Of a stretch of DNA of 64,000 nucleotides, positions 11,234 through 63,996 are shown in pieces. The position numbers were made by a program, and so were the translations under genes. Where the stretch lies: NCBI GenBank assembly GCA_910576925.1, contig CAJTKB010000002.1:419-64418 (forward strand), given 5' to 3'. The notes below the pieces were generated by a model. That model did no database searches. It worked only from the letters and a program-made list of their open reading frames with translations, and had not been told where the DNA came from. The first letter of the stretch is position 1, and every line of letters starts with the position of its first letter. Source of the stretch: an uncultured Bacilli bacterium. Its GTDB lineage: Bacteria > Bacillota_I > Bacilli_A > RF39 > UBA660.

Positions 11234-13141
11234 TTACTCACCTAATAGAAGTCTAACCATAGTTCCTTCTTCAACACTAGTACCAGCTTCTGGTGATTGT
11301 CCAACAACTTTTTCTCCACTACCAGCATATTCAATTGTAAAAGTAGTTAAAGCTTTTTTAGCCTCATCTACGCTCATTCCAACTACATTAGGAACTTTAT
11401 ATACTACTTTATCTGACCATTCAAGATCTTTTTCGATTTGATTTTTTTGTCTCTCAATTCCTAATGCATCAATAATATCTAATAAAATCCTTCTAGCAAT
11501 AGGTGTCGTTGTATAACTTGAAAGCATTGCAGTATGTTTAGGATTATCTATTGCAAGATAAAATACAGCTTCAGGATCATTAGCAGGCACAATTGACATA
11601 AATGACATAATATAATTATTAACTAAATATTGACCATTCTCAACCTTTTGAGCTGTTCCAGTTTTTCCACCTATTCTATAACCATCAATATATGCAGAAC
11701 GTCCTCCTCCTAAAGCTACAACATTCTCAAGAGCTCTTCTCATAATATTAGAGGTCTTTTTACTTATAACTTTTCTAACTAATTTTTTATTATTTTCTTT
11801 TATAACATTTCCTGATTCCTTCTCTAAAATATTTTTCACAACATAAGGAGTATATAAATTCCCACCATTAACAACTGCTGATACTGCTGTTACTTGTTGA
11901 ATTGGAGTAACACTTATTCCTTGACCAAAAGCTGTAGTTGCAAGTTCTATATTACCAACTCTTGATAACGGAAATATTATTCCCTTTCCTTCTCCACTTA
12001 AATCAACTCCTGTTTGAGCACCAAAACCAAATTTATCAAGATAAGAAAATAATCTATCTTTTCCAAGTTCCTGCCCCATTTTTACAAATCCTGGGTTACA
12101 AGAATTTTGAAGAACTTCCATAAAAGTTTGAGCTCCATGTCCACCAGCCTTCCAGCATTTTATTACAGCAGTATCAACTTTAACCTTACCAGCATCATAA
12201 AAATGATCATTATCAAGGTCTACTACTCCTTCCTCAACAGCTGCAGCAGTAGTTATAATCTTTTGAGTGGAACCAGGCTCATACGTTGCCCATATTGGCA
12301 AATTACGGCTTAATACTTCCTGCGAATACTGTTGATAATTATTAGGATCAAAATTAGGCCTACTACTCATTCCATAAATCTCACCAGTATTAGGATTCAT
12401 AACAATAGCAAGAGCCATATCAGGAGAAAACATATCAACAACATTATCAAGCTCCCTTTCTAATGACTGTTGAATATTAATATCAATAGTTAATTGTATA
12501 TCCATTCCATCTTGAGGTTCTAAATAAACATCAGCTAAATCAAGTTTATTACCCTTAGCATCAGAAAAATATTTAATAGCACCACTTTCTCCTGTTAGAT
12601 ATTTATCATACTGAAGTTCAAGTCCAGATAACCCCTGATTATCAATGCCAACATAACCTAAAACGTGTGATAAAAGAGCTCCATATGGATAGTTTCTCTT
12701 AGACTCTTTAACAAGATAAACACCATCTAACTTTAAATCACTTATTTTCTGAGCTATTTCATAACTAAGTCTTCTTCCTTCTGGATGTACTCTTTCAATG
12801 GAAGTAACTTTACTAACATGAGCATACATCTCTTTATAACTAACACCTAAAATCTCTGAAAGTTTTGTAGCAGCATCCTTCTTATCTTTAATTTGATTAG
12901 GTACAACTACAAGAGAAGTTGTAGTTAAGTTATCTGCAAGAACTACTCCATTTCTATCAAGTATTCTCCCTCTATTAGCTTCAACTGGTAAATCTCTACT
13001 CCACAAATCATTCGCAAGAGCAGATAATTTCTTATAATCAAATATTTGAACATAAAATACTTTTAGTATTATTAAAAAAAATGCTAAAAATAGAAAAAGT
13101 ACAAATATTTTAATTCTCTTATCTATATTTTTTAAGAACAT
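11234..13141 (-). CDS. class B penicillin-binding protein (SpoVD/FtsI-like) with a C-terminal PASTA domain
   Basis: STQK (SxxK), SCN (SxN) and KTGT motifs, an N-terminal TM and a C-terminal PASTA-like segment. It lies immediately upstream of mraY. Confidence 0.85.
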   Translation of the reverse strand: MFLKNIDKRIKIFVLFLFLAFFLIILKVFYVQIFDYKKLSALANDLWSRDLPVEANRGRILDRNGVVLADNLTTTSLVVVPNQIKDKKDAATKLSEILGVSYKEMYAHVSKVTSIERVHPEGRRLSYEIAQKISDLKLDGVYLVKESKRNYPYGALLSHVLGYVGIDNQGLSGLELQYDKYLTGESGAIKYFSDAKGNKLDLADVYLEPQDGMDIQLTIDINIQQSLERELDNVVDMFSPDMALAIVMNPNTGEIYGMSSRPNFDPNNYQQYSQEVLSRNLPIWATYEPGSTQKIITTAAAVEEGVVDLDNDHFYDAGKVKVDTAVIKCWKAGGHGAQTFMEVLQNSCNPGFVKMGQELGKDRLFSYLDKFGFGAQTGVDLSGEGKGIIFPLSRVGNIELATTAFGQGISVTPIQQVTAVSAVVNGGNLYTPYVVKNILEKESGNVIKENNKKLVRKVISKKTSNIMRRALENVVALGGGRSAYIDGYRIGGKTGTAQKVENGQYLVNNYIMSFMSIVPANDPEAVFYLAIDNPKHTAMLSSYTTTPIARRILLDIIDALGIERQKNQIEKDLEWSDKVVYKVPNVVGMSVDEAKKALTTFTIEYAGSGEKVVGQSPEAGTSVEEGTMVRLLLGE

Positions 13142-13256
13142 AATATCACCTAATGATAGATATGAACCAAAAACAAAAAAAAGAACATTTATGTAAAAAC
13201 AAAAAGTTCCAAAATTTGCAAAAATTATATTTAATACATATTAAGATTACTAATCT

Positions 13257-13730
13257 TTAATTCTTATATTTTCCTACAGAACTGTTAGATTTAACATAAG
13301 CAGTATTTTTATTTACTTGTTCTAAAACCTTTTTAGTATATAACACTAAATCAGTTTTACCAGTCTCTTCAATTCTTACTAGTTTAGAATTTTCTCTATT
13401 ACTCCTATTTTTTAAATAATAATTATTATGTTGTCTTACCAAAATGTCAAACCTATTTATATAAGTATTATACTTTTCAATTTTTTCTACTAATCTCTTA
13501 CATAAGAAAGAACTATCTGCTTTATCCCTAATATGTGAAAATATATTTTCCAACTCTTTATCTGTAAAACTACTTTTTTCAGGAAGTAAATCTGGAAAAA
13601 CACAACGTATTTGTAAATATAAAATATCATTTATTATTACATTTCTTAACATATTTAAATACTCTTGTCTATCTAAATAGCCTATTTCTGGAAAATCTTT
13701 ATTGTCATTTTCATTCACATTATCATTCAT
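13257..13730 (-). CDS. hypothetical protein
   Basis: ORF only. I recognise no motifs. Confidence 0.35.
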   Translation of the reverse strand: MNDNVNENDNKDFPEIGYLDRQEYLNMLRNVIINDILYLQIRCVFPDLLPEKSSFTDKELENIFSHIRDKADSSFLCKRLVEKIEKYNTYINRFDILVRQHNNYYLKNRSNRENSKLVRIEETGKTDLVLYTKKVLEQVNKNTAYVKSNSSVGKYKN

Positions 13731-13890
13731 TTAATCCCCTCCTTTATACGTTTCAAGATTATAACATAAAAATTGAAAAAGCACAAGATTTTTCTCACAT
13801 TTCCACAATTTCCCAAACAAAAAACTATTAATAAATATTTTTATTAAATTATATATTTATTAATAGCATATTATTATCAGCAAACAAACT

Positions 13891-14136
13891 TTAACATTTT
13901 TCTATTTCAAACTTAACATATTGATTATTTTTCAATGAACTTGCTTCCTGTAAAAGTGTTCTAATCGCATTAATTACTTTGCCATCTTTCCCAATAACCC
14001 TACCAATGTCAGCTTCATTTACTTTAGCTATAAGCACGATAACTCTATCGTCACTTTCATTCATTTCTACTACAACACTATCTGTATAAAAAACGATAGA
14101 TTTAATCAAAAATTCAGCTAATTCTTTTAAACTCAT
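13891..14136 (-). CDS. KH-domain RNA-binding protein (YlqC-like)
   Basis: 81-aa protein with VIGKDGKVINAIRTL (GxxG KH loop). It lies immediately downstream of rpsP, as in other Firmicutes. Confidence 0.7.
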   Translation of the reverse strand: MSLKELAEFLIKSIVFYTDSVVVEMNESDDRVIVLIAKVNEADIGRVIGKDGKVINAIRTLLQEASSLKNNQYVKFEIEKC

Positions 14137-14139
14137 ATA

Positions 14140-14430
14140 TTATTTTACCTTTTTATTTTTAGAGTCAGCAAATTTTTTCATAATTCCAGCTTTACTAAAT
14201 AAATTTCTAACAGTATCAGTTGGAATAGCTCCAGTATTTAACCATTTTAGTGCAACTTCTTCATTTATCTTAGTTTCAGTTTCATCACAAGGATAATAAT
14301 TTCCTATTAACTCTAAATATTCTCCATCTCTTCTTGCACGTGAATCTGTTGCAACTATTCTATATCTAGGATGTCCTTTAGCACCCATTCTTGTTAATCT
14401 TATTTTAACTGCCATATTAAATTCCTCCAT
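14140..14430 (-). CDS. rpsP: 30S ribosomal protein S16
   Basis: [21 protein letters not shown]...[16 protein letters not shown] closely matches the bacterial S16 consensus. Confidence 0.9.
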
Positions 14431-14535
14431 TTCTAAATCAACTATAGAATATCACAACTCAATCTAGCTGTCAACATATTTTGGTTAACACATTTAAAGA
14501 TGCTATTTATCTAATTTCAATACTAAAAAAATAAA

Positions 14536-14997
14536 TCAATTTAAATTATCTGTAGAGCCAAAGCCACCAGTTCTATTTCCTGTAGCATTATCTAAATCTA
14601 CCAGCAAATATTTTTGAAATATTACTTGTCCTATTACATCACCCTTATGAATAACTATTTCTTCATTTTTTATATTATAATATTGAAAATAAAAATGTCC
14701 TTCATTTGTTTCATTATTATAATAATCCTTATCAATTATGCCAACACTATTAGCCATTACAAGTCCCTTTTTAGGTCCACTACTTCTATTCAACAGCATA
14801 TAAAACTCATCATCCATACAATAAGCTTTTAAACCAGTAGGAATTAGTGTTGGTTTTTCACCTAATTTAAACGGTGGTATAACAACATCCTCTGCTGCTT
14901 GAACATCATATGCTGCAGCAAATTTCGTACTCCTAACAGGTAGATTTATTCCTTTATTTTTATACTCTTCTACTATTTCAAAACCTCTTTTTCTCAT
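14536..14997 (-). CDS. dut: dUTP diphosphatase
   Basis: C-terminal motif RTGGFGSTD (dUTPase motif 5). The 153-aa size also fits. Confidence 0.7.
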   Translation of the reverse strand: MRKRGFEIVEEYKNKGINLPVRSTKFAAAYDVQAAEDVVIPPFKLGEKPTLIPTGLKAYCMDDEFYMLLNRSSGPKKGLVMANSVGIIDKDYYNNETNEGHFYFQYYNIKNEEIVIHKGDVIGQVIFQKYLLVDLDNATGNRTGGFGSTDNLN

Positions 14998-15284
14998 ATT
15001 TCTTCTCCTTCAATATCTTATTATTATCTATATATAAAATTTTCTTATTTTCCTTGTTATCCCAAATATATCCTACATAACAGCAAATACTTTTATTTAT
15101 GTATCAAAAATAAAAATCTAGAAAAAGATCAACTAATAGAAAAAAATGGAAAACCAATAAAATCGATATAAACTATTTACATAATGTATACATTTATGAT
15201 ATATTTTAATAGCTAACAGATATCACAATGTTAGCATAATATTTATTTTCTGTTTTCTTTTTTTATATTACTATACTCCTTTTA

Positions 15285-15327
15285 GTGAGTATACTCTATT
15301 AGCCATATGACTAATAGAGTTTTTTTA
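15285..15327 (+). terminator. intrinsic terminator-like hairpin (ACTCTATTAGCC-ATATG-ACTAATAGAGT followed by a T7 run) on the plus strand
   Basis: Perfect 11-bp stem followed by TTTTTTT. A second short hairpin sits just upstream. No plus-strand CDS lies upstream. Confidence 0.5.
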
Positions 15328-15364
15328 ATTAAAAGAAGATTTATATCATATCAATATAAACCTA

Positions 15365-15613
15365 TCATTTTAAAACTACATATATAATATAAGATATAAT
15401 TCCTATAAAAGAAAGAATAGCAATAACCATCAAAATTTTTCTTCTATTATTCCTCTTTTTAAAAATAAATGAATTTTCTTTAAAAAGTTTTTTCCTATCT
15501 CCATATTTTTTTAAATAATTTTTATTAAGAGGATTACTATAATTTAATTCTCCACATCTTAAACAACAACGCTCTTCTTCTTTCATTTCATTACCACATT
15601 TAGGACATTTCAT
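15365..15613 (-). CDS. small zinc-ribbon membrane protein
   Basis: CPKCG...CLRCG gives a Cys4, and there is a C-terminal TM. Confidence 0.4.
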   Translation of the reverse strand: MKCPKCGNEMKEEERCCLRCGELNYSNPLNKNYLKKYGDRKKLFKENSFIFKKRNNRRKILMVIAILSFIGIISYIIYVVLK

Positions 15614-15658
15614 TAGTTATCTCTCCTATTCTCTTTTATTATAACATCTAATATTATT

Positions 15659-18600
15659 TTAGAAAAGAGAGAGTTGATTAGAATCTGGAAGATCTGCAAG
15701 TATACCCATATCACTCATTTTAGCTATCAAGGTTTGTGATACTTTTCCTCTAGTTTGTACATCTTCTTTACTAATAAAGTTACGCTCCTTACGTTCTTTT
15801 ACAATAGTCGCCGCAACAGTAGTACCAAGTCCATCAATAGTAGAAAATGGTGGTATCAATGTATATTCGTCATCCTCTTTTTTTATAAATTTTGTTGCTT
15901 CACTTTTTTCAAGATCGATATTTGCAAACTTTATACCACGACAAACTGCTTCAAGTGCAATCTTCAAAGTTTCTATAATATTAGTTTCTTTATTAGTAGC
16001 TTCAAATCCTTTATTTTGTAAATCATTAAGTCTCTCTCTTATAGCATCTTCTCCTTTAATCATCGCTTCAATATCAAAATCATCAACTCTAATAGAGAAA
16101 AATGCAGCATAATAATTATATGGTTGATAAAGTTTAAACCAAGCTATACGTATAGCACTCATAACATAAGCACAAGCATGAGCCTTAGGAAACATATACT
16201 TAATCTTATGACAAGACTCTATATACCAATCAGGAATATTAGCCTCTTTCATCATTTGAGCCCAATTCTGCCAAGTAGCAGGATCTTTGGAAGGTTTTCC
16301 TTTACGAACAAACTCCATAATTTTAAAAGCAATCTTTGGTTCCATTCCCCAATTCATCAAGCTAACCATAATATCATCACGACAACCAATAACTTCTTTA
16401 AATGGAACTATTCCTTTTTCAATTAACTCTGAGGCATTCCCAGCCCAAACATCAGTTCCGTGAGAAAGTCCCGATATTTTAACAAGTTCGGAGAAAGTTT
16501 TTGGCTTTGTTTCCTGAAGCATTGCAATAACAAACTTAGTACCAAGCTCAGGAAGTCCCAAAGTACCAGTTGGACACATAATTTGCTCTTCAGTAACCCC
16601 CAAAGCTTCAGGACTAGATAAAAGTGAAAACACCTTAGTATCATCCATAGGAATAGTAGTAACATCAACTCCAGACAAATCCTGAAGCATTCTAAGTACT
16701 GTCGGATCATCGTGTCCTAGAATATCTAGTTTTAATACATCTTGATCAATTGCATGATAATCAAAATGAGTAGTACGCCATTCTGCCGTTACTTCATCTG
16801 CTGGAAATTGAAATGGAGTAAAATCAAAGACATCCATATACTTTGGAATAACTACAATTCCCCCTGGATGCTGTCCTGTTGTTCTCTTAACACCAGTACA
16901 ACCAATAGCAAGTCTTTCCACCTCAGCATTCCTAATATCAACTATACCATGCTCTTCAGCCCAACCTCTAACATAACCAAAAGCTGTTTTTTCAGCAACT
17001 GTACCAATAGTACCAGCTCTATAAACATTATCCTCTCCAAACAACACTTTAGTATAAGCATGCGCACTAGCCTGATTATCACCAGAAAAATTAAGATCTA
17101 TATCAGGAACTTTATCACAATTAAATCCCAAGAAAGTGGCAAAAGGCATATCTTGTCCCTCTTTTCCTAACTTCTCACCACATTTTGGACAAATTTTATC
17201 TGGTAAATCATATCCACTAGCAAGTTCTTTTCCATAAGCTACACCATTCTCATCATTAAATTCAGAATATTTACAATTATAACAAAGATAATGAGCTGGA
17301 AGTGCATTAACTTCAGTTATCCCCATCATACAAGCAACAAAACTTGAACCAACTGAACCACGAGAACCAACTAGATATCCCTCATCATTTGAATGTTTAA
17401 CAAGTTTTTGAGAAATCAAATAAATTACATCAAACCCTCCACCAATAATTCCCTTCAATTCGGATTTAATTCTATCTTCTATATTTTGAGGAAGTGGATT
17501 ACCATACATACTATGTGCCTTATCATATACCATATTACGAACAATTTCACTACAATTTTCTATTTTTGGAGAAAAAGGAATACCACCTGTATCAATTATT
17601 ACTTCAATATCTTGAGCCATATCAAGTATTTTATTCGAGTTTTCTATAACTAATTTTTTTATTAAATTTGAATCATCTAAAAATTTAAAATTTTCTAACA
17701 TTTCTTCAGTAGTTCTCAAATGATTACTTGGAATGTCTTTAATTCCATTACGTGCTAGCGGATGCCTTCCTCCACCTGGTACTTTCTGATTTACAATTAT
17801 CTCCCTATAAATTTTATCATCTCTTTTTATATGATGAACATCTCCTGTTGCCACAATAATTTTTCCAGCTTCCTCTGTCGTCCTAATAATCTTTTTAAGA
17901 TGTTCTGAAAGCTCATACTCATTTGTAAAATCATTACTTTGTATTAAATGATTGTAACATTCTAAAGGTTGAACTTCAACATAATCATAAAATCTAATAA
18001 TATTAGTAAGTTCTTCTTCACTTTTACTTCTAGCTTCTCTAAACACTTCAGACTCATAGCAACCACTTCCAATTAAAATACCATTTCTATTTTTTTCAAT
18101 TTCACTTCGAAGAATTCTAGGTGTCTTATAAAGATATTTAGTATTAGCAAGTGATATTAATCTAAACATATTTTTAAGTCCGATCTTATTTAGTGCCAAA
18201 ATATTTATATGATAACTTTTTCCGTATTTATGAATTTCATCTTTACTAACAAGAGTATCAAGTTGATCCATTCTCTCAATATTACGATTATCGAGCTTTT
18301 TTAACATTTTATGAAAAACTAATGCTGTTCCTTCAGCATCATAATCACCTCTATGATGACAATCTTCATCCCAAGGAACATCATATCTTTTAATAATCGC
18401 AGAAAGTGAATGTCTAGAGTAATTATTATCAAGAGTACGTGAAAGCTCTAATGTATCAATTACTGGATTAGTATATTCACCTAAATTATACTTTCTATAG
18501 CACATTTCCAAAAATGAAACATCAAACTTTGCATTGTGAGCCACCATAGGTAAATCCCCAAACCATTCAATAAATCTTTTTATAGCATTTTCTTCATTAT

Positions 18601-25133: not shown

Positions 25134-26018
25134 TTAATTATTACTTACTTCATATAAATAAGTTGAATATACCCAAACATCACGTCCAGCAATTTTTAAT
25201 TTAGCTGAATTAGTTGGTATATCTATTTCTTGAACAGTATAGATATTATCATTTTTAACATAGCTTGTACCACCTGTTAAAAGCTGGTCGTTTGTAGGAT
25301 TGCCATTTTTATCTACTTCTGTAAAATCACTTGTAGGTAACCAGTGATAATTCTTCACACGTTCATTATAATAATCATCATAACTATTACCTGTAAGTTC
25401 GCAACAACCAAACAAATTACTTGATAATGGACTTTTTAATATATCAACTTTGAATATACCATTGAATTTAACTTTGCTACCTTTAACTAATATCTGGTCT
25501 GGTTCATTTGTAACTTGACTTACGCTATTGCCCATTTTGCTTCTAACCATATTTAAGAACCTTTCCCAGCCCATATCTAAAGTACGATGTGGGCAATATT
25601 TATTTGCATAATCTTGATGCTTAGTTACTTTATCTATACCCCAACCATATCTTTTAAGAATACCTGCAATTAGTTCTGCTGCGTTTTCTTCTGCTTTATT
25701 AAATCTATCTCCTCCAGATTTAGAATAACAAATTTCAATAGCTATACCTTCTCTATTGCCTTTGCCATTGCCATCACCAGAATGCCAAGCATTTCTGTTT
25801 TCAGGTAAACCTTGTACTGCTTCTACATCATCTACTGCATAATGATATGATACTTGACTGCCACCTTGTGCCTGATTTTTATTCATATATTTAATCTCTG
25901 CGTCTGCTGAGGCGTCATTTGCTGTATTATGCACTACTATTCTTGTTGGTCTCATAGAATACGGACTCTTCCAACTGTATAAACTGGAACTCATTAAGTT
26001 TTGTCTTACTTTTACCAT
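25134..26018 (-). CDS. endolysin: N-acetylmuramoyl-L-alanine amidase (Amidase_2/PGRP fold) with a C-terminal cell-wall-binding domain
   Basis: IVVHNTAN...SYHYAVDD...AWHSGDG...KHQDYANKYCP are Amidase_2 zinc-site motifs. Confidence 0.85.
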   Translation of the reverse strand: MVKVRQNLMSSSLYSWKSPYSMRPTRIVVHNTANDASADAEIKYMNKNQAQGGSQVSYHYAVDDVEAVQGLPENRNAWHSGDGNGKGNREGIAIEICYSKSGGDRFNKAEENAAELIAGILKRYGWGIDKVTKHQDYANKYCPHRTLDMGWERFLNMVRSKMGNSVSQVTNEPDQILVKGSKVKFNGIFKVDILKSPLSSNLFGCCELTGNSYDDYYNERVKNYHWLPTSDFTEVDKNGNPTNDQLLTGGTSYVKNDNIYTVQEIDIPTNSAKLKIAGRDVWVYSTYLYEVSNN

Positions 26019-55293: not shown

Positions 55294-55683
55294 TTGGAAG
55301 GAGGTATTACTTTGAAATTAAAGCAAGATTGTATTAGAGATACACTTTTGTTCCTTGAAAAAAATATGTCTAGAACTGGTTTCTTTAGTAGTCATTCAAT
55401 TCAATTAGATAATTTTTCAACAGAAGATATTGATTACACCGTTGAAAAATTAAGTGAAGCTGGGTACTTAACTCTTGCCTCAATATATTGTGATGGTCAT
55501 ATTTTAATCAGATGCATAACCTATGATGGGCACCAATTTCTAGATAATATTCGTGATGATAAAGTTTGGGCTAAAACAAAGTTAGTGTTATCAAAATTTT
55601 CATCTACTTCTATGTCATTTGTTCAAGAAGTAGCATCACAAGTTATATCAAATATCATTAGTAACAGTTTATACAAAAAGTAA
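55294..55683 (+). CDS. DUF2513-like phage-associated protein
   Basis: N-terminal LKQDCIRDTLLFLEKN resembles the DUF2513 start (..CIRDILL..E). The gene is oriented against the surrounding early operon. Confidence 0.45.
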   Translation: MEGGITLKLKQDCIRDTLLFLEKNMSRTGFFSSHSIQLDNFSTEDIDYTVEKLSEAGYLTLASIYCDGHILIRCITYDGHQFLDNIRDDKVWAKTKLVLSKFSSTSMSFVQEVASQVISNIISNSLYKK

Positions 55684-55894: not shown

Positions 55895-56113
55895 CTATTC
55901 TTTTTGCTCATAAAATTTTGTCCAATCTAATCCTAAGATACTGGCTATCCTTTTTGCTAATTTAGGTTTGGGAGTTCTTTTTCCTCTTTCCCACCAAAAT
56001 ATAGCTTGCTGTGTAACTCCTACTTCTTTAGCGAGTTGTGGATAAGTGAAACCTCTATCAATTCTTGCTTGAATTAGCCAATGCCTGACTGGTTCTGTTG
56101 ATCTTCCTGCCAT
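55895..56113 (-). CDS. Cro-like XRE HTH regulator
   Basis: 72 aa with an HTH (FTYPQLAKEVGVTQQAIFWWERGKRTP). It is divergent from the cI-like gene. Confidence 0.6.
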   Translation of the reverse strand: MAGRSTEPVRHWLIQARIDRGFTYPQLAKEVGVTQQAIFWWERGKRTPKPKLAKRIASILGLDWTKFYEQKE

Positions 56114-56368
56114 TTAATCACCTCCTTGATTTCTGTAACTTATTGTTGTATAATTTAGTTGTCTATTTTTTAAATAGATAAAAAACTTATCGTGGTATAA
56201 ATTAAATATTATCTTTCTAAATTACCATTTTATTTTTTTATTAGTGGCAATAAGAAAAAATGAAAAGTATATTTAAAAAAGGATTAAGTTTTTTTAAAAA
56301 TCTTTTTGCTAATGGAATAAGTATTATTATCATAATTAGTAACAATAACACCATTAATAAGAAGTGAC

Positions 56369-56380
56369 CTTGATATCAAG
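56369..56380. promoter_or_regulatory. perfect 12-bp palindrome CTTGATATCAAG in the cro-cI intergenic region, with a partial copy CTTGATATC at 56399-56407. Candidate operator.
   Basis: Read directly from the sequence between the divergent repressor genes. Confidence 0.4.
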
Positions 56381-56566
56381 TTAGTTTACCAGACAGAGCT
56401 TGATATCTTTTTTTATACAACAATTTTTGTAATCTTGCGTATAGCTTGATTACATATTTATCATACAACAAGTTGTTTCTTATGTCAATAAAAAAAAGTA
56501 ATTTAATTATAACGAATTGTTTATAATTGTAATTTTGTTGTATTATAAGCGCAAGGAGGTATCTTT

Positions 56567-56926
56567 ATGTTTGGAGAAAGACTAAAATATTTACGAGAAA
56601 ACAAAAACTTACTTCAAAAAGAATTAGGAGATGCTTTAAATGTTACTTCTCAAACTGTGAGTGGCTGGGAAATTAATAGAACAAAACCAGATTATGATAT
56701 GTTGGTTACTATAGCAAATTTTTTTGAAGTTACTATTGACTATTTATTAGGTAATGAGATGAAAGCAACTAAAATTGAAAATGAATTAAAAGAAAAAGAA
56801 GCGTTGAAACAGTTATTAATAAAAAATGGATATATGAAAGAAAACGAAAATTTAAGCGACGAGGAATTAAATAAGCTTATGAAATTTGTGGTTAATAATA
56901 AAGATATATTGAAAGGAAATAAATAA
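56567..56926 (+). CDS. CI-like XRE-family repressor
   Basis: HTH (LLQKELGDALNVTSQTVSGWE). The RBS is AAGGAGG. It is divergent from the cro-like gene. Confidence 0.7.
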   Translation: MFGERLKYLRENKNLLQKELGDALNVTSQTVSGWEINRTKPDYDMLVTIANFFEVTIDYLLGNEMKATKIENELKEKEALKQLLIKNGYMKENENLSDEELNKLMKFVVNNKDILKGNK

Positions 56927-57726
56927 TGATGATTTCAAAAAAGAAGAATGGATTAAAGTCCTCAAATGCATCAAGTATTGAAGGAAAAAATATTGAAGGC
57001 AGAACGATAATTTCTTCTAAATGGATTATTGATTATTTATTAAAATTAATAGATAATAATCTTAATTGTGAATTATATACTTTTATAGAATTTTTTCCCA
57101 TATATAAAGCAAAAATTAAAAGTTTAATCAAATATAAAGTCTCTGAAATACCCGAAAAGTTTTTAACAAAACCAGATATCAACGTTATTATTGCTTTTAT
57201 TGAATATCTAAAATCTGATATAGACAAAGAATACAAAATGGATATATATGTAAATTTAATTATGAAAAACATAGATGTTAGAAATAAGAAAATAATTCAT
57301 AATTCTTTCTTATCAATTATTAAAGATTTAAATTATAATGATATCTTGCTATTAGATAATTTACGAAAAATAAAAAAAGAAGATATTATAAGCTTAAATG
57401 TAATAGATAACAATTCAAATATTATTGATATATTTAATTGTGAGAAATACTTTACCTTCATAAAACATAATATAAATTTAGATGAGTTGACAATTTCTAT
57501 TAATAACCTAATACGATTAAATTTAATTTCTCTTTTTATGTCATCGCAAAAAAAAGAGAACATTTTAGAAAACTGGATAAATATCTTGCATTCAGAAACA
57601 ATAAAGAACATTTCTAAGGAACAGAAATGTGATTTACAATTTCAAGCAAAGCAAAGTGGTTATATATCATTAACTAATTTAGGAGAGATTATTGCAAATC
57701 TATGTATTATAGAAAATTATATTTAA
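56926..57726 (+). CDS. hypothetical protein translationally coupled to the repressor (candidate superinfection-exclusion / abortive-infection factor)
   Basis: 266-aa ORF whose ATG overlaps the cI stop (TAATG). I recognise no domain. Confidence 0.4.
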   Translation: MMISKKKNGLKSSNASSIEGKNIEGRTIISSKWIIDYLLKLIDNNLNCELYTFIEFFPIYKAKIKSLIKYKVSEIPEKFLTKPDINVIIAFIEYLKSDIDKEYKMDIYVNLIMKNIDVRNKKIIHNSFLSIIKDLNYNDILLLDNLRKIKKEDIISLNVIDNNSNIIDIFNCEKYFTFIKHNINLDELTISINNLIRLNLISLFMSSQKKENILENWINILHSETIKNISKEQKCDLQFQAKQSGYISLTNLGEIIANLCIIENYI

Positions 57727-57792
57727 TATTTCTTACTATAAAAGCACTAAAATGAACTGAACCCCAAAAGTTGGACAGTTTATAAATAGTTT

Positions 57793-58690
57793 CTAATTAA
57801 AGGATTGTAACCTGTAATTTACGGGAGATAGTCCTTTTAATTTTACTTTAATTCTATCATAATTATAATATTTAATATAGTCATCGATTGCTAAAATTAG
57901 TTCATCTATTGTTTTATAACTTTCTTCTTGGTCATAAAACATTTCAGTTTTAAGAAGTCCAAAGAAATTCTCCATCATTCCGTTATCCATGCTGTTTCCT
58001 TTTCTAGACATGCTTTGCTTAATACCTTTATTCTTTAATCGTTGTTGATAAGAAGCATGCTGGTATTGCCAACCTTGATCAGAATGAAATATTAAACCTT
58101 CTAAATTTCTATCATTAAATGCTTTATCTAACATATCATTTATTTGTTCTAGATTTGGAGATTTAGATGTATTGTAAGATACTATTTCACCATTAAATCC
58201 GTCTAGTATTGGTGATAAATAAATCTTTTCTCCACGAAGATTGAATTCAGTAACATCTGTATACCATTTCTGATTTGGTTTAGCTGCAGAGAATTCTCGA
58301 TTAATATAATTATCTGCTATTTTACCAACTGTTCCTTTATATGATGAATATTTTCTTTTGTTTCTTTTTAAAGGTTTTAATCCTAACTTCACCATTATTC
58401 TATAAACTTTCTTGTGATTAACATTATAACCTTGATTTCTAAGTTCTAATGTTATCCTACGATAGCCATATCTTTCTTTATTATTTATAAATATTTCTTT
58501 AATTTTATCAATTATTTCATTATTTTTTTCATCTTTATCTGTTTTAGATAAAGTATAATAATATACTGATTTTGCTAAACCAGATATCTTTAGAAGAATC
58601 TTTAATGAATATGTTAGCCGAAGTTCACTTACAACATTTACTTTTTCTTCTGTTGTTGATTCTTCCTTGCTTGAACAACGGCTCTCAATT
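57793..58690 (-). CDS. IS3-family transposase OrfB (DDE integrase core). The N-terminus extends upstream of the first Met and is expressed by -1 frameshift from orfA.
   Basis: KERYGYRRITLELRNQGYNVNHKKVYRIM upstream of the annotated Met, together with HSDQGWQY, matches the IS3 OrfB pattern. Confidence 0.75.
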
Positions 58691-59144
58691 TTTTTGAGTA
58701 TTCTAGCTCAGCCTTCAAATATAAATTCTCTTCTTGTAATCGTTTTATAGTTTCATCTTTAGTTTCTTTAGATTTTTTCTTCGTTACTTTTGGCATAGTT
58801 GGACGCCCTCGCTTTCGTTCAACTATATTATAACCATTTTCTTTATATTTTGAAATCCAGTTTGATAGCATTCCATGACTAGGTAATCCTAAATCTATAG
58901 AAACTGCCCAGGTAGATTCCCCTTTATTTAAAACTCTATTTATTGCATCTATTTTGAAAGTTAAAGAATATCTTTTATTTTTCTTTTTTTGCACTATCTT
59001 GTATCCATGTCTCTCAATTAATCTAACTAAATATTTCACTCGTCTTGCATCAATTTTATATTCTTGATGAACAGTTTCAAGAGAGACACCTTTTTTTCTT
59101 TTATTATATATTTCAACTTTATCCTCATAACTTAATTTAGACAT
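58638..59144 (-). CDS. IS3-family transposase OrfA (HTH)
   Basis: 168 aa with an HTH and a leucine-zipper-like C-terminus, ending near the slippery site. Confidence 0.75.
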   Translation of the reverse strand: MSKLSYEDKVEIYNKRKKGVSLETVHQEYKIDARRVKYLVRLIERHGYKIVQKKKNKRYSLTFKIDAINRVLNKGESTWAVSIDLGLPSHGMLSNWISKYKENGYNIVERKRGRPTMPKVTKKKSKETKDETIKRLQEENLYLKAELEYSKKLRAVVQARKNQQQKKK

Positions 59145-59552
59145 ATAAAAACCTCGCTTCTATTTTGTCCAAGAAACGGGGTTCATATCAAAAAACTAGT
59201 GCTTTTTACTTTGTTCTATTAACCACTTAATAAATTGTTTGTACACTCCCTGCTTTTTTAAATAATTATAGAATTTATCAAAATTATTCAACTTAATCAC
59301 CCCCTGTTCTATTTTAGATAAATATTTAATATTTTTTGGAAATGATATATAATCGTACTCATCAACTTGTAGTTTTCTGCATTTCTAGCAACTTACAATA
59401 TCATAAAACAAATGAAAATACGTTTTTTTACCTTTAAAGCTTAAAAATAGACCTTCAAAATAAGTGAAGGTAAAAAATTAATGGAAATAATTACAAAAAA
59501 AATAATTAATAAGTTTTGCTATAATTTTTTTAGAATGAAGAGGTTATAGTTT

Positions 59553-60203
59553 ATGAGAATTGTAGTTATTGAAGATAATAAAAGAGTTAACTCATTGATC
59601 TGTGAGTATGTAAATGAAATAGTAAGTAAAAGTTGTTTAGATTATCAATTATTAAATTTTTATAGTTTTAATGATAATCTTAGAAAAATTATTTATAATT
59701 GCGATATTAAAATTTATATTGTAGATTTACAGCTCAATTCTAAAAGTGGATATAATATTTGTAGAGAAATACGAGAAGGAGCTAATGATTGGAAAAGCAT
59801 TATAATTATTTGTTCAGCTTATAATCAAAAAGAAGAAATTATATCTTTAAGACTATCTATTTTTACTTATGTATCCAAACATATTAATTTTAAAAGTAAC
59901 ATCAAAGATAGCATAAATAAAGCTATCCAAATTTTATCTAGTAATAACATTGTAACAATAGATAAAAATACAAAAATATGTATTAATGATATTTGCTATA
60001 TTGAAAAAATTAAACAAACTAAGTATTGTAAAATAGTTACTCTAGATTCTAAAGAATATAAAATAATGAAAACTATTAAAATGTTGAAAAAGGAACTAAA
60101 TTTTAAACAGATAAGAAACTATTTGCTAATTAACGATAATAATATTAGAATAATAGATAAACAGGAGATCACCTTTATAAATAAAATTAGTATTAAATAT
60201 TAG
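59553..60203 (+). CDS. LytTR-family response regulator (REC + LytTR), orphan
   Basis: MRIVVIEDN with the IVDLQL acceptor Asp region, and a C-terminal LytTR pattern (ICYIEK...FKQIRNYLLINDNNI). Confidence 0.6.
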   Translation: MRIVVIEDNKRVNSLICEYVNEIVSKSCLDYQLLNFYSFNDNLRKIIYNCDIKIYIVDLQLNSKSGYNICREIREGANDWKSIIIICSAYNQKEEIISLRLSIFTYVSKHINFKSNIKDSINKAIQILSSNNIVTIDKNTKICINDICYIEKIKQTKYCKIVTLDSKEYKIMKTIKMLKKELNFKQIRNYLLINDNNIRIIDKQEITFINKISIKY

Positions 60204-60218
60204 AAAGGGAATAAAAAT

Positions 60219-61181
60219 ATGAGTACAGAATTAGAACAAAGAAATGAAATAATATTATTTGAAAATCAAGAAGTCAAACTTGAAGTAAATATGCAAGATG
60301 AAACTGTTTGGTTATCTTTAGAACAAATGGCTAGATTGTTTGACAGAGATAAATCAGTAATTTCAAGACATATAAGAAATGTTTTGGAAGAAGAGTGTGA
60401 CAATTCAACTGTTGCAAATTTTGCAACAGTTCAAAAAGAAGGTAATAGAGAAGTTACCCGAGAAATAGAATATTATAATCTGGATGTAATAATTAGTGTA
60501 GGTTATCGTGTTAAAAGCAAAAATGGTATTTTATTTAGAAAATGGGCTAATAAGGTATTAAAAGACTATATGATACAGGGATATTCAATTAATAAGCAAA
60601 GACTTGAATATTTAGAAAAAACAGTTAAGCTAATAGATATTGCTAACCGTGTAGATAGCGAATTAAAAAGTAATGAAGCTAGAGAGATTATTAAAGTTAT
60701 AAATGAATATTCTAATGCTCTAAATTTATTAGATGAATACGACCACAGAACTTTAACTAAACCTAAAGGAACATTAAATAATGATGTAATAATAAAATAT
60801 CAAGATTGCTTGAATATAATTAATCAAATGAAATTCAAGAACGATAGTGATATTTTTGGATTAGAGAGAAACAATGGCTTAGAAAGTATTATAAACAACG
60901 TATTCCAATCATTTATGGAAAACGATGTCTACCCTACCATTGAAGAAAAAGCCTCTAATTTTCTGTATTTAATTGTTAAAAATCACGTATTCATAGATGG
61001 TAACAAAAGAATAGCTGCTACCCTATTTATTTACTTCTTACAATTCTATAATATTCTTTATAAGAATAATAAACAAGTAATAGATAACAACACATTAGTA
61101 GCAATAACGTTATTAATTGCAGAATCTAATCCTAAAGAAAAGCAGATTTTAATTGATTTAATTATGAATTTTCTAAATTAA
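60219..61181 (+). CDS. RhuM-family protein with a C-terminal Doc-type Fic domain
   Basis: NLDVIISVGYRVKSKNGILFRKWANKVLKDY is the RhuM signature. HVFIDGNKRIAATLF matches the Doc/Fic HxFx(D)GNKR motif. Confidence 0.7.
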   Translation: MSTELEQRNEIILFENQEVKLEVNMQDETVWLSLEQMARLFDRDKSVISRHIRNVLEEECDNSTVANFATVQKEGNREVTREIEYYNLDVIISVGYRVKSKNGILFRKWANKVLKDYMIQGYSINKQRLEYLEKTVKLIDIANRVDSELKSNEAREIIKVINEYSNALNLLDEYDHRTLTKPKGTLNNDVIIKYQDCLNIINQMKFKNDSDIFGLERNNGLESIINNVFQSFMENDVYPTIEEKASNFLYLIVKNHVFIDGNKRIAATLFIYFLQFYNILYKNNKQVIDNNTLVAITLLIAESNPKEKQILIDLIMNFLN

Positions 61182-61334
61182 AAAAAGACCTCACACGGCA
61201 ATGTGAAGTCAAATGAAAAACTACTTAGTGACCAAACTAAAACTATAACAAAAATATAGAGTTTTTCTATACAATGTGATAGGAGTTTTTCTATTACATT
61301 GTAGCATATTATTAAATAAAAAGGAAGTGTTACA

Positions 61335-62714
61335 ATGATAAAGAATAATGAAACAATAAACAAAATAATTAGAGTTGCTATATATATACGAGTATCTACG
61401 GAAGAACAAGCCAAACACGGTTACTCACTAGGTTCACAACTAACTAGACTAAAAGAATATTGTAAACAAAAAAGTTATAAAATTATAGAAGTTTATACTG
61501 ACGAAGGAAAATCAGCTAGAAGCAAACTAAAACTAAGAACAGAACTTTTAAGACTAATAGAAGATGTCAAAGCTGGAAAAATAGATAGAATTGTTTTTTG
61601 GAGACTTGATAGATGGTTTAGAAATATTGCTGATTATTACAAGGTCCAAGAAATATTAGAAGCTAATAATGTTGACTGGGAATGTTCTGATGAAGAATAT
61701 AACACTACTACCTCAAACGGACGACTTCATTTAAATATTAAACTATCTATAGCACAAAATGAATCAGATCAAACCTCAGACAGAATTAAGTTTAATTTTG
61801 AAAATATGATTAAAAGTAAAAAAGCAATATGTTGTACTCACTCTTGCCCATTTGGATATAAAGTAGAGGGTGAAAAAGGTAATAAACACGTAGTAAAAGA
61901 TAAAGAAAAAGAAGAAATGGTAAATTTTATTTTTGATACTTATGAGTTGAACAATAACTACAGACAAACAACTATCCTTTTTAATAAAAAATATGGTTAC
62001 TCTACTGATCCTACCATTATTAAAAAGATGTTAAAGAAAACAATTTATTATGGAGAATATAAAGGTGTTACAGATTATACAGAAGCTTATATCACAAAAG
62101 AAAGATGGAATAAAATCCAAGAAATGCTTCCAAATAACGTTAAAAAAAATAAAAATCACGAATATATTTTTTGTGGATTAATTATTTGCAAACATTGTGG
62201 TAGAAAAATGTCAGGAAGTACTAATAGAAGTTATCAGAGATATACTTGCAAAAAGAATAAAGAAGCTAAAGTTTGCCCGAATACCAAACAAATTACACAA
62301 AACAGACTTGAAAATTATTTGTTATTTATTCTTGAAGATTTACAAAAATTAGAAGTAGATTCTATTGCAAAAGAAAAAGAAGATAAAAATACCATTGACA
62401 TAGAAAAAGAAACTAGTAAAATAGATAAAAAAATCAATAGATTAAATGAATTATATATTGAGGGTCATATTTCCAAAGAAAAATACGATAAAGATATAAC
62501 TATATTCCAAAAGCAAAAAACAGAATTTCTTTCTCTAAAAAGAAAAAAGAAGAAAGAAAAAGAGATTATTAATCTCCCTAATGATGCTATAGAACTTTAC
62601 AAAATGCTAAATTCTGAAAACAAAAGAAACTTTTGGAAAAAGTATATAGACTATATAGAATTTGATTATACAAAGGATAATATAGAAGATAGAATAACTA
62701 TAATTTTAAAATGA
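61335..62714 (+). CDS. large serine recombinase (phage integrase/excision recombinase)
   Basis: N-terminal resolvase domain VAIYIRVSTEEQ...GYSLGSQ, a recombinase domain and a zinc ribbon (CKHCGRKMSG...YTCKK). Confidence 0.85.
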   Translation: MIKNNETINKIIRVAIYIRVSTEEQAKHGYSLGSQLTRLKEYCKQKSYKIIEVYTDEGKSARSKLKLRTELLRLIEDVKAGKIDRIVFWRLDRWFRNIADYYKVQEILEANNVDWECSDEEYNTTTSNGRLHLNIKLSIAQNESDQTSDRIKFNFENMIKSKKAICCTHSCPFGYKVEGEKGNKHVVKDKEKEEMVNFIFDTYELNNNYRQTTILFNKKYGYSTDPTIIKKMLKKTIYYGEYKGVTDYTEAYITKERWNKIQEMLPNNVKKNKNHEYIFCGLIICKHCGRKMSGSTNRSYQRYTCKKNKEAKVCPNTKQITQNRLENYLLFILEDLQKLEVDSIAKEKEDKNTIDIEKETSKIDKKINRLNELYIEGHISKEKYDKDITIFQKQKTEFLSLKRKKKKEKEIINLPNDAIELYKMLNSENKRNFWKKYIDYIEFDYTKDNIEDRITIILK

Positions 62715-62890
62715 TGTACTAACTATATCGTACCAGGAGGTCTTGCTGGAGGTGCACTCGGTTATAGTATAGCTAACAATAATTTTTTGAGTAATAACAA
62801 TAACAACAATGGATATTATCCAATGGGGCCAGGACCTAGACCTTGTTGTGGTCAAGGACCAATTTTTGTTACACCATATCCTTGGTATTA
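62715..62890 (+). pseudogene. 3' half of the split small Tyr/Gly/Pro/Cys-rich host gene (…GGLAGGALGYSIANNNFLSNNNNNNGYYPMGPGPRPCCGQGPIFVTPYPWY*). It has no start codon of its own.
   Basis: The open frame begins right at the recombinase TGA. The first in-frame ATG is 37 codons in. The composition matches the 5' half at 23079. Confidence 0.45.
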
Positions 62891-62910
62891 AAAAGTCAAT
62901 TTAGACTTTT

Positions 62911-63996
62911 TTATTTTACTGGAAGTTCAATAAATACATCTGTTCCTTTATTTAATTGGGATTTATAATACATTTTTCCATTATGTAAATTAATAATTTC
63001 CTGTGATAAAGAAACACCTAAACCAGTTCCATTTTCTTTTGTTGTATAAAAGTTTTCTCCAATATGTTTTAGTGTATCTTTACTCATACCTACTCCATTA
63101 TCACTAACTTTTATTACTAATTGATTACTTTTTATATATGCCTTTAATGTTATTTTCATATTTTTCTTTTTTGCTTCTATGCTATTTTTATAAATATTTA
63201 TAAATACTTGTTTTATTCTATTATAATCAAGATCCAAATAAAGTTCATCATCTGGTATTATAAACTCATACTTAATATTATTACTCTTTAATAATGGCAT
63301 TAATTCATCCCTAACATCTTCAAGTAACATACAAATATCTGTATCCTCTTTTGCTACCTTTATCTTAGTATAATCTAGAAAGTCGTCCATTAAAGTAAGA
63401 GTTCTATTTATTTCCTTACTAATAACAGGAATATACTCACTATACTTTTCAGTATCATCATCAAGCATATCTAAATATCCTCGACATACTGCTAAAGGAT
63501 TTTTTACTTCATGAGTCATTTTAAATAATGACTGTTTAATTTCCTTTTCACGATTTAATTCATTTAATGTACTATTATAATTAACAATATTTTCACTTAA
63601 ATCTATGATAAATACTATTAAATATAGAAAAAACGATAAAAGTAGTGAACTAAAGAAAATATAAGTAAAAAGGTCTAAATAATTAGAATTTGGCATAATA
63701 TAAAATATAGTTTGATATATCATAGATAAAATTCTAATTACTAAAAAGCTATTTATAATTTTTCCAACTCTATTACTTTTCTTATTAAATAGTAAAAATG
63801 AAGAAAAATATAATAAATATTCAACAAATAACATAATTATATTAAAGTTAAATCTATAATTATTAAATATAATTAAAATAATAGCAATTGTAATAGAAGT
63901 AATTTTTTTATTTTTTATAAAACTAACAACTAATGGTATTTCAAATAAAAGAGCTGGATAAATCGTTTTAAACATTACTCCATATCTAATAAGCAT
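62911..63996 (-). CDS. sensor histidine kinase with a polytopic membrane N-terminal domain
   Basis: Five or six TM segments, an H-box HEVKNPLAV, and HATPase motifs N (NIYKNSIEA), G1 (DNGVGM) and G2 (GTGLGVS). Confidence 0.8.
   Translation of the reverse strand: MLIRYGVMFKTIYPALLFEIPLVVSFIKNKKITSITIAIILIIFNNYRFNFNIIMLFVEYLLYFSSFLLFNKKSNRVGKIINSFLVIRILSMIYQTIFYIMPNSNYLDLFTYIFFSSLLLSFFLYLIVFIIDLSENIVNYNSTLNELNREKEIKQSLFKMTHEVKNPLAVCRGYLDMLDDDTEKYSEYIPVISKEINRTLTLMDDFLDYTKIKVAKEDTDICMLLEDVRDELMPLLKSNNIKYEFIIPDDELYLDLDYNRIKQVFINIYKNSIEAKKKNMKITLKAYIKSNQLVIKVSDNGVGMSKDTLKHIGENFYTTKENGTGLGVSLSQEIINLHNGKMYYKSQLNKGTDVFIELPVK

Follow-up and report, generated by a model that had tools for sequence, protein, structure and literature searches.

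When a response regulator without a kinase of its own stands directly in front of a Doc-like gene in a prophage, do the two genes form a dedicated system, or did they come to lie side by side by chance? The question is raised by a stretch of 64,000 nucleotides from an uncultured Bacilli bacterium (GenBank assembly GCA_910576925.1, contig CAJTKB010000002.1), hereafter the window, which has a GC content of about 26% and contains a prophage of about 38 kb. The plus-strand lysogeny module of this prophage comprises, in this order, a cI-like repressor, an Abi_alpha gene, an IS3 element (on the minus strand), the regulator, a gene termed here RhuM-Doc, and a large serine integrase. The two genes under study are the following.

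59553-60203, plus strand: orphan response regulator with a receiver (REC) and a LytTR domain, 216 amino acids (aa), intact, assigned by Pfam, an AlphaFold2 (AF2) model and PDB matches
60219-61181, plus strand: protein of 320 aa with a RhuM N-terminal (winged-HTH-like) module and a Doc-type Fic domain, PADLOC phage-defence candidate PDC-S23

A preliminary description of this DNA had placed both open reading frames (ORFs) at these positions, 15 nt apart, and this layout was confirmed. It had also proposed that the two genes work as a pair, and in this respect the comparative data lead to a different conclusion. The locus is probably an integrase-proximal cargo slot, occupied by two unrelated accessory genes that were acquired independently and became neighbours through cassette shuffling, rather than a dedicated system.

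Among independent relatives, the one closest to the regulator (81% identity) occupies the same place in a related prophage, L001. In that module, cI and two small genes precede the regulator, which is followed after 15 nt by the gene for a Bro-N protein of 281 aa and then by a serine integrase. In blastn comparisons, two blocks of the window align with L001. One (59191-60266, 85% identity) starts upstream of the regulator, spans its gene and ends 48 nt inside the following ORF; the other (61175-61346, 84% identity) takes in the last bases of that ORF, the hairpins of the intergenic region and int up to its 12th nucleotide. Between the blocks, the body of a swappable cassette (908 nt; 60267-61174) is unrelated in the window and L001, and the two integrases are 34% identical. 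The reverse arrangement is found in L053, which has RhuM-Doc (88%) and the integrase (99%) behind a gene that encodes an unrelated protein with no Pfam match. The homology with L053 begins 13 nt before the ATG, and the RhuM-Doc cassette therefore appears to carry no promoter of its own.

The only other locus that contains both the regulator and RhuM-Doc is L052, a 93% identical copy of the same module. Its regulator bears a stop codon at position 186 (Q186stop), and tblastn matches its RhuM-Doc only in two pieces that lie in different frames; errors are possible in L052, which is one short-read contig from Logan. RhuM-Doc was found near the regulator in none of the 14 regulator loci from species-representative genomes, and in all other contexts sampled the relatives of the regulator occur without RhuM-Doc and those of RhuM-Doc without the regulator. 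Co-occurrence outside the window is essentially limited to near-identical copies of the module, namely L052 and L007-L010, which represent one and the same prophage as the window (seen in the contig L007 of a metagenome-assembled genome (MAG), GCA_948686165.1, and in several metagenome contigs). Confinement to such copies and the decoupling in L001 and L053 argue against the functional pairing put forward in the preliminary description.

These data bear directly on the idea that the two genes are a dedicated module: a host kinase would phosphorylate the receiver and thereby gate a Doc-like toxin, with the regulator serving as a selected transcriptional switch, or as an antitoxin-like partner that replaces Phd. 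Such a module would account for the 15-nt spacing on a common strand, the lack of a terminator and of a Phd-like gene, and the invariance of receiver residues D58, S88 and K109, and an apparently promoter-less cassette should need the promoter of the regulator for its expression. The pair is, however, confined to near-identical copies of one module, each gene is found without the other (in L001 and L053), both are disrupted in L052, and relatives of either gene lack the other in all contexts examined. A dedicated gated-toxin module is thus largely refuted by the comparative data, and we regard it as very unlikely.

The flanking genes are the following.

56567-56926, plus strand: cI-like HTH repressor, first gene of the lysogeny module (Pfam HTH_3, 8e-14; Phage_CI_repr, 2.6e-5)
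56926-57726, plus strand: Abi_alpha protein, PADLOC candidate PDC-S47, a further cargo gene of defence type (Pfam Abi_alpha, 6e-20; PDC-S47, 5e-22)
61335-62714, plus strand: large serine integrase, placed at the right-hand prophage end (Pfam Resolvase, 9e-31; Recombinase; Zn_ribbon_recom)

The presence of Abi_alpha in the same module supports the cargo-slot reading, as does the position of RhuM-family genes in satellite phages of Streptococcus. The RhuM N-terminal module was detected in about 70 of 50,697 GenBank phage records, 44 of which are Streptococcus satellite-phage and phage records, and full-length RhuM-Doc was detected in a single one. In Streptococcus satellite phage Javan598 a RhuM-like gene is placed directly upstream of the integrase on the same strand, and about 40 related records show the same arrangement. 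The location between repressor and integrase, which had been considered unusual, is therefore shared with RhuM-family genes elsewhere. The more general proposal of lysogenic-conversion or defence cargo fits these observations. With a DUF2513 gene (phrog_585; 55294-55683) as a further accessory gene by the cI/cro switch, in addition to Abi_alpha, defence-type cargo is concentrated in the lysogeny region.

The domain assignments of the preliminary description were borne out for both proteins by Pfam, AF2 modelling, PADLOC and PHROG. In the 320-aa protein, Virulence_RhuM (PF13310) is matched with 91.6 bits (cut-off 33.7), covering only profile positions 1-73 of 252. The C-terminal domain, for which a profile check had been proposed, matches Fic (PF02661) at residues 203-274 with 43.3 bits versus a cut-off of 24. 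PADLOC PDC-S23 is matched over its full length (2.1e-123; residues 7-320 against profile positions 3-324 of 327). Many PDC-S05 models match the RhuM-N module by itself, and PADLOC separates PDC-S05 (RhuM-N with other tails) from PDC-S23 (RhuM-N with Fic). The PHROG "Doc-like toxin" family is matched at 9e-17; TIGR01550 (DOC_P1) scores 34.0 bits, under its cut-off of 38.65. RhuM-Doc is hence Doc-like, outside the curated Doc subfamily.

The Doc-type motif HVFIDGNKR pointed out earlier (H256-V-F-I-D-G-N-K-R264) is invariant in 29 homologues. It fits the pattern HxFx(D/N)(A/G)NKR, in which Lys stands where HxFx(D/E)GNGRxxR has its second Gly, and it lacks the distal Arg. Doc-family PDB chains are matched by sequence with the motif aligned (9vzc_A, 3.9e-7; 3k33, 0.19), and a PDB profile search with the N-terminal module returned no match. 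As reported before, no Phd-like antitoxin gene lies beside RhuM-Doc or elsewhere in the prophage, the sole upstream gene being the 216-aa regulator.

A database search retrieved at least 8000 homologues of RhuM-Doc, thousands of which show identities of 75-89%, many of them 75-80%, and one of which bears the NCBI name "virulence protein RhuM/Fic/DOC family protein". RhuM-Doc is an ordinary member of this very large, highly conserved, stand-alone single-gene family. Three close homologues located on longer chromosomal contigs are single genes in unrelated neighbourhoods:

first homologue: between surface proteins
second homologue: beside an ABC transporter and BacA
third homologue: after flavodoxin genes

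Neither the regulator nor a recurring small partner was found near these three sampled homologues. The family as a whole is distributed over commensal gut MAGs and restriction-modification (R-M) loci. A RhuM-like domain fused to DOC was described in restriction-modification/PrrC loci and proposed as a toxin of layered defence (Anantharaman et al. 2013; PMC3710099).

A second role has been reported for this architecture. BifA (SeseC_01334) of Streptococcus equi subsp. zooepidemicus is a RhuM+Fic virulence factor that acts on host moesin and requires its catalytic His (PMC6529018). RhuM-Doc could by this precedent be a host-directed effector, and the prophage a case of classical lysogenic conversion; the shared RhuM+Fic architecture and the essential His of BifA are in favour of it. 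No signal peptide or secretion system was found in the RhuM-Doc neighbourhood, though, and members of the family occur widely in MAGs of gut commensals and in R-M loci. The motif, moreover, is of the Doc type, whose known target is reportedly bacterial EF-Tu, as Castro-Roa et al. are said to have described in 2013. We consider an effector role of this kind most improbable.

The first gene of the pair was analyzed in the same manner. The regulator reaches 29.6 bits with Pfam Response_reg, 0.6 bits short of the cut-off (30.2), and 21.2 bits with Pfam LytTR, slightly short of 22.6, a threshold that several family members pass. The AF2 model computed from 15 family members (predicted local distance difference test (pLDDT) of 82.6) combines a REC fold with an all-beta LytTR domain behind it. 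Over its full length the model is matched best by ComE in the PDB (4cbv; E 2.7e-10), and it superposes on the LytTR domain of AgrA with a TM of 0.74. Receiver residues D58, S88 and K109 are invariant across the family; the N-terminal acidic pair, E7/D8, is partly degenerate. The ratio of nonsynonymous to synonymous substitution rates (dN/dS) is 0.19 against the L001 copy. By this measure the phage-borne copy is still under purifying selection, with the phospho-acceptor Asp retained.

Relatives of the regulator numbered 16 in a word-indexed search and 83 in a profile search. An exhaustive HMMER search of 1.84 billion cluster representatives yielded 17 clusters (50% identity) at E<=1e-30, approximately 13 of which are of the short type (roughly 206-227 aa), and further matches grade into ordinary LytTR regulators of ~240 aa. 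Every family member stems from an animal-gut MAG of an uncultured Bacilli or Clostridia bacterium, and their contexts are mostly chromosomal and kinase-free:

22 contigs: HSP20-GH94-response regulator (RR)-cotJB-cotJC
46 contigs: ValRS-cyclophilin, followed by RR and a UDG-like gene
isolated copies: before Tex or an FtsX transporter

No kinase was found within about 6 kb of the regulator in the chromosomal contexts examined. The nearest paired relatives, L023 and L024 (29% identity), are followed by an AgrC-like HATPase_c_5 kinase, which implies that the family arose from a canonical LytTR two-component system and has since become orphan. In a neighbour-joining tree, constructed without support values, the two phage copies fall inside the chromosomal family, and we infer that the phage regulator is a copy captured from the host's lineage-specific orphan. 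No homologue was detected by tblastn in the 50,697 GenBank phage records or by scanning IMG/VR, and a scan of JGI metagenomes gave one irrelevant match (27%).

As the preliminary description had stated, the prophage encodes no kinase beside the regulator or elsewhere by tblastn, and the nearest one lies outside the element on the opposite strand.

62911-63996, minus strand: HisKA-type histidine kinase (HisKA+HATPase_c), past the integrase end of the prophage

Apart from this gene, tblastn over the 64-kb window revealed no other kinase or regulator homologue. The kinase ORF exceeds the window edge and is 410 aa at full length in L007. Just past it, L007 has another element, at 12819-16963, whose genes encode a serine recombinase of 578 aa along with a metallo-beta-lactamase-fold protein, a PNPOx-like protein and a Mob_Pre relaxase, so that the kinase is flanked by two integrated elements and has no adjoining regulator gene. 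Because the paired relatives use HATPase_c_5 kinases, the HisKA kinase is an unlikely partner. It was rejected as a candidate on account of its class, its strand and its position past the integrase end.

In five distinct contexts examined, a serine recombinase is found at most 1.5 kb from a regulator gene, which may be due to a common hot spot of integration or to some functional connection. Three further recombinase-regulator layouts, in tandem, convergent and divergent orientation, occur at L004/L014 8001-10222, L016 8001-11312 and L019 4583-8234, and in L016 the serine recombinase abuts a Mn-catalase/CotJC-like fragment adjoining the regulator. A role of the regulator as integrase partner or recombination directionality factor, suggested by the five contexts, was rejected as the main explanation, as most family members are chromosomal and have no recombinase.

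How the regulator gene itself is controlled was approached through its promoters. Twelve chromosomal promoters of the family share the layout DR(AAGGNCA)-N13/14-DR-N24-TGnTATAAT (DR, direct repeat), that is, 9-bp repeats with a 21-bp period and a -35-less extended -10. It is positioned ~30-110 nt upstream of the regulators (L012-L025, L041, L046), and the surrounding sequence is unconserved. This layout is classical for LytTR-activated promoters and suggests autoregulation of the family. The corresponding region of the phage copy is rearranged.

59396-59525, both strands: regulator promoter region

The plus strand has an extended -10, TGCTATAAT, at 59517-59525, and upstream of it a single good AAGGT half-site (59466-59472), its partner being degenerate. 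A fuller LytTR-type box is found on the minus strand and consists of TTGAAGGTC (59458-59450), a 21-bp period, TTAAAGGTA (59437-59429), N24 and TGATATTGT (59404-59396). This box is conserved in L001 and L052 and is directed away from the regulator gene, toward a 31-aa ORF; it is suggestive, a candidate only. The top matches of a position weight matrix scan, at 26419-26390 and at 56393-56364 in the cI-cro spacer, were within the shuffled range, the second also being without promoter spacing, and no LytTR-type box was accepted near cI/cro or int.

59196-59291, minus strand: basic ORF of 31 aa (MNNFDKFYNYLKKQGVYKQFIKWLIEQSKKH) with a TTG start and a GGGGG Shine-Dalgarno sequence, divergent from the regulator; also in L001 (7649-7741) and L052 (2401-2493)

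This stretch is ~93% conserved in a three-way alignment of the window, L001 and L052, and differs from L001 by four synonymous and two conservative changes. According to tblastn the ORF is confined to phage modules; no homologue is present next to chromosomal regulator genes, where unrelated small ORFs are found. In the GH94-RR-cotJ loci L016, L025 and L046, another conserved ORF of ~41 aa is divergent from the regulator (e.g., L046 5681-5806, minus strand), with the pattern MNxxVxYFFDxEE...IILIVISIFL and a C-terminal hydrophobic segment. L017, L021 and L041 contain yet another conserved short ORF, MEFFDILYIIISNDEKSKDNIIK.

The conserved regulator and flanks raise the prospect that the phage keeps a paralogue of a host orphan regulator in order to read a host kinase signal and to switch the slot gene, the 31-aa ORF or int. 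Phage-encoded VqmA of vibriophage VP882 provides a likeness for such eavesdropping. Eavesdropping agrees with the purifying selection on the phage copy (dN/dS 0.19), with the conservation of the regulator and both regulatory flanks while cargo and integrase (34% identity) were swapped, with a LytTR-type box directed at a conserved small ORF confined to phage modules, and with the serine recombinases at most 1.5 kb away in five contexts. The slot of L001 is occupied by a Bro-N protein, and the Bro-N family is often annotated as antirepressor. The regulator and its conserved flanks might on these grounds be a movable unit beside the integrase that expresses its payload (RhuM-Doc or Bro-N) in response to a signal, and that perhaps also drives the 31-aa protein on the opposite strand, a notion that we consider doubtful. 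If the phage did eavesdrop, lysis-lysogeny decision or exclusion would be tied to host physiology. There is, however, no known kinase partner or signal, the box lacks statistical significance and has no counterpart near cI/cro or int, and the L052 copy has a nonsense codon. The strategy is also uncommon among phages, with no homologue in the GenBank phage records or IMG/VR, and we judge it unlikely.

The cargo-slot reading requires a route by which RhuM-Doc is expressed, and here an insertion sequence (IS) overlooked in the earlier work is relevant.

57754-59190, minus strand: IS3-family insertion sequence between Abi_alpha and the regulator (Pfam HTH_Tnp_1, rve/rve_2/rve_3)

The element comprises orfA (59144-58638) and orfB (58395-57793; 200 aa as listed), with the segment between them, 58396-58637, uncalled, and is bordered by the terminal repeats TGAACTGAACCCCAAAAGTTGGACA and TGATATGAACCCCGTTTCTTGGACA. 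It occupies the loop of a bidirectional terminator hairpin, AAAGCACTA ... TAGTGCTTTTT, which would have terminated the cI-Abi_alpha unit. L001 is free of the IS3 element, and its homology with the window starts again at 59191, the first base past the IS. With this terminator behind the cI-Abi_alpha unit, the regulator has its own upstream region of ~360 bp. The gap of 15 nt between the regulator and RhuM-Doc contains the ribosome-binding site AAAGGGA and no terminator, and the co-transcription proposed in the preliminary description is likely on this basis. Because the RhuM-Doc cassette has no upstream sequence that travels with it in its two contexts, read-through from the preceding gene would be its simplest expression route. 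A leftward transcript from the divergent promoter region of the regulator would enter the transposase genes of the IS3 element in sense.

The 153-nt spacer between RhuM-Doc and int is strongly structured (z = -4.74) and contains two elements.

61187-61210, minus strand: hairpin after RhuM-Doc, an intrinsic terminator for the minus strand only, with a T7 tail
61257-61305, plus strand: 24-bp tandem repeat and hairpin with a 15-bp stem in the integrase leader, ~30 nt before the int start

In the first element the stem is kept relative to L001 by two compensatory pairs. The arms of the second co-vary relative to L001 (ATGTG/ACATT against ATAAT/ATTAT), and this hairpin is conserved although the two integrases are only 34% identical. 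It probably insulates or regulates int. Minus-strand terminators would keep late transcripts on the circularised genome out of the lysogeny module.

The cargo may also have become idle. Both genes would then be passive hitch-hikers with no current phage function and in decay, as the Q186stop in the regulator and the frame breaks in RhuM-Doc of L052 and the IS inserted next to the module might indicate. Both ORFs are nonetheless full length in the window and in every copy of this prophage, the regulator has a dN/dS of 0.19, the catalytic motif is invariant, and L052, as a single short-read contig, may contain errors. Passive carriage is accordingly a very unlikely account of the locus.

Under the cargo-slot reading, the locus would be composed of two parts. 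The first would be a host-derived, lineage-specific orphan REC+LytTR regulator from a family that appears to be autoregulated from a LytTR-type direct-repeat promoter. The second, placed behind it, would be a self-contained, promoter-less RhuM-Doc cassette, in which an N-terminal DNA-binding module is combined with a C-terminal Doc-type Fic kinase domain. In the lysogen, RhuM-Doc would probably be transcribed by read-through from the promoter of the regulator. By analogy to P1 Doc, the C-terminal domain would most likely phosphorylate a translation factor such as EF-Tu, or another target, with translation arrest as a consequence, and the RhuM module, of a DNA-binding type that is frequent in regulatory regions of phages and satellites, may supply in cis the trigger or restraint that Phd gives in trans. 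The payoff to the lysogen would be exclusion or abortive infection. Should the regulator activate its own promoter, expression of RhuM-Doc would come to depend on the phosphorylation of the regulator; such dependence would be transcriptional, incidental and not co-evolved, as it would result from the cassette having landed there.

Several points weigh against this interpretation. The data contain three or four phage-borne regulator loci, which makes the statistics of the slot thin. The two genes that follow the phage regulator share their first ~16 codons and the type of their DNA-binding N-domain, and in view of this shared start the regulator and its slot might be related in a non-random way. 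The LytTR-type box of the phage (59427-59458, minus strand) scores 9.7 bits, below the shuffled maxima in the window-wide scan, and the box is degenerate on the regulator's own strand, which makes control of the operon by the regulator a conjecture. Co-transcription of the regulator and RhuM-Doc is a prediction from sequence. The AF2 model of RhuM-Doc, computed from 29 close homologues, is poor (pLDDT 52.7), so that autoinhibition by the N-terminal module has no structural support. The literature on PDC-S23/RhuM-Doc yielded no demonstrated anti-phage activity, and BifA, the sole RhuM-Fic protein found with a published characterisation, is described there as a virulence factor (PMC6529018).

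Elsewhere in the window, PolC, a penicillin-binding protein and MraY are encoded at 10-20 kb. The minus-strand part of the prophage extends from an Amidase_2 endolysin (25134-26018) to a cro-like gene (55895-56113), and includes portal and terminase genes at 42-45 kb as well as replication genes. The cI-like repressor is 53% identical to its L001 counterpart. A megablast search of 59200-62800 against the GenBank phage records gave no match, and an Rfam scan of 56000-63000 gave nothing credible. In L001, an RVT_1 reverse transcriptase (15127-16263) adjoins the lysis genes of the related prophage region and may belong to a diversity-generating retroelement.

A comparison with known systems places both genes in established families. 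RhuM-Doc has the same RhuM-N plus Fic architecture as the RhuM/Fic/DOC proteins PDC-S23 and BifA, and the protein itself shows no difference from them; what is particular here is its location as second gene behind a response regulator in a prophage. With P1 Doc, the EF-Tu kinase of the type II toxin-antitoxin system Phd-Doc, it shares the HxFxDGNKR motif and the matches to Doc-family PDB chains, but it adds an N-terminal RhuM module of ~200 aa and has no Phd gene, either here or near the sampled homologues. The regulator shares with AgrA and ComE the REC+LytTR fold, the receiver D/S/K and, in its chromosomal members, the direct-repeat promoter. By contrast, it is shorter (216 versus ~240-250 aa), its alpha4 region is poorly predicted, its acidic pair is partly degenerate in the family, its box is rearranged in the phage copy, and it has neither an adjoining AgrC/ComD-type kinase nor a recognisable secreted-peptide (pheromone) gene. 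The locus as a whole resembles integrase-proximal cargo ("moron") slots, in which accessory genes on the lysogeny strand are swapped between relatives within conserved flanks, here with Abi_alpha alongside. It differs from the usual slots in that the upstream flank is a presumably captured regulator gene, whose promoter the cargo would inherit.

The locus is thus of a known kind: its genes are new members, but their families and the type of slot have been described before, and the parts worth a further look are only the phage-borne orphan LytTR regulator and the conserved promoter of its family. The analysis keeps a spurious "response-regulator-gated Doc toxin" system out of catalogues and provides a clean case of cassette exchange in an integrase-proximal cargo slot, with the breakpoints mapped. 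A PDC-S23 gene in a lysogeny module near Abi_alpha lends circumstantial support to a defence or exclusion role for this abundant family. Finally, the small, orphan and apparently autoregulated LytTR family of uncultured gut Bacilli, one branch of which is phage-borne, offers a lead for phage-host signalling.

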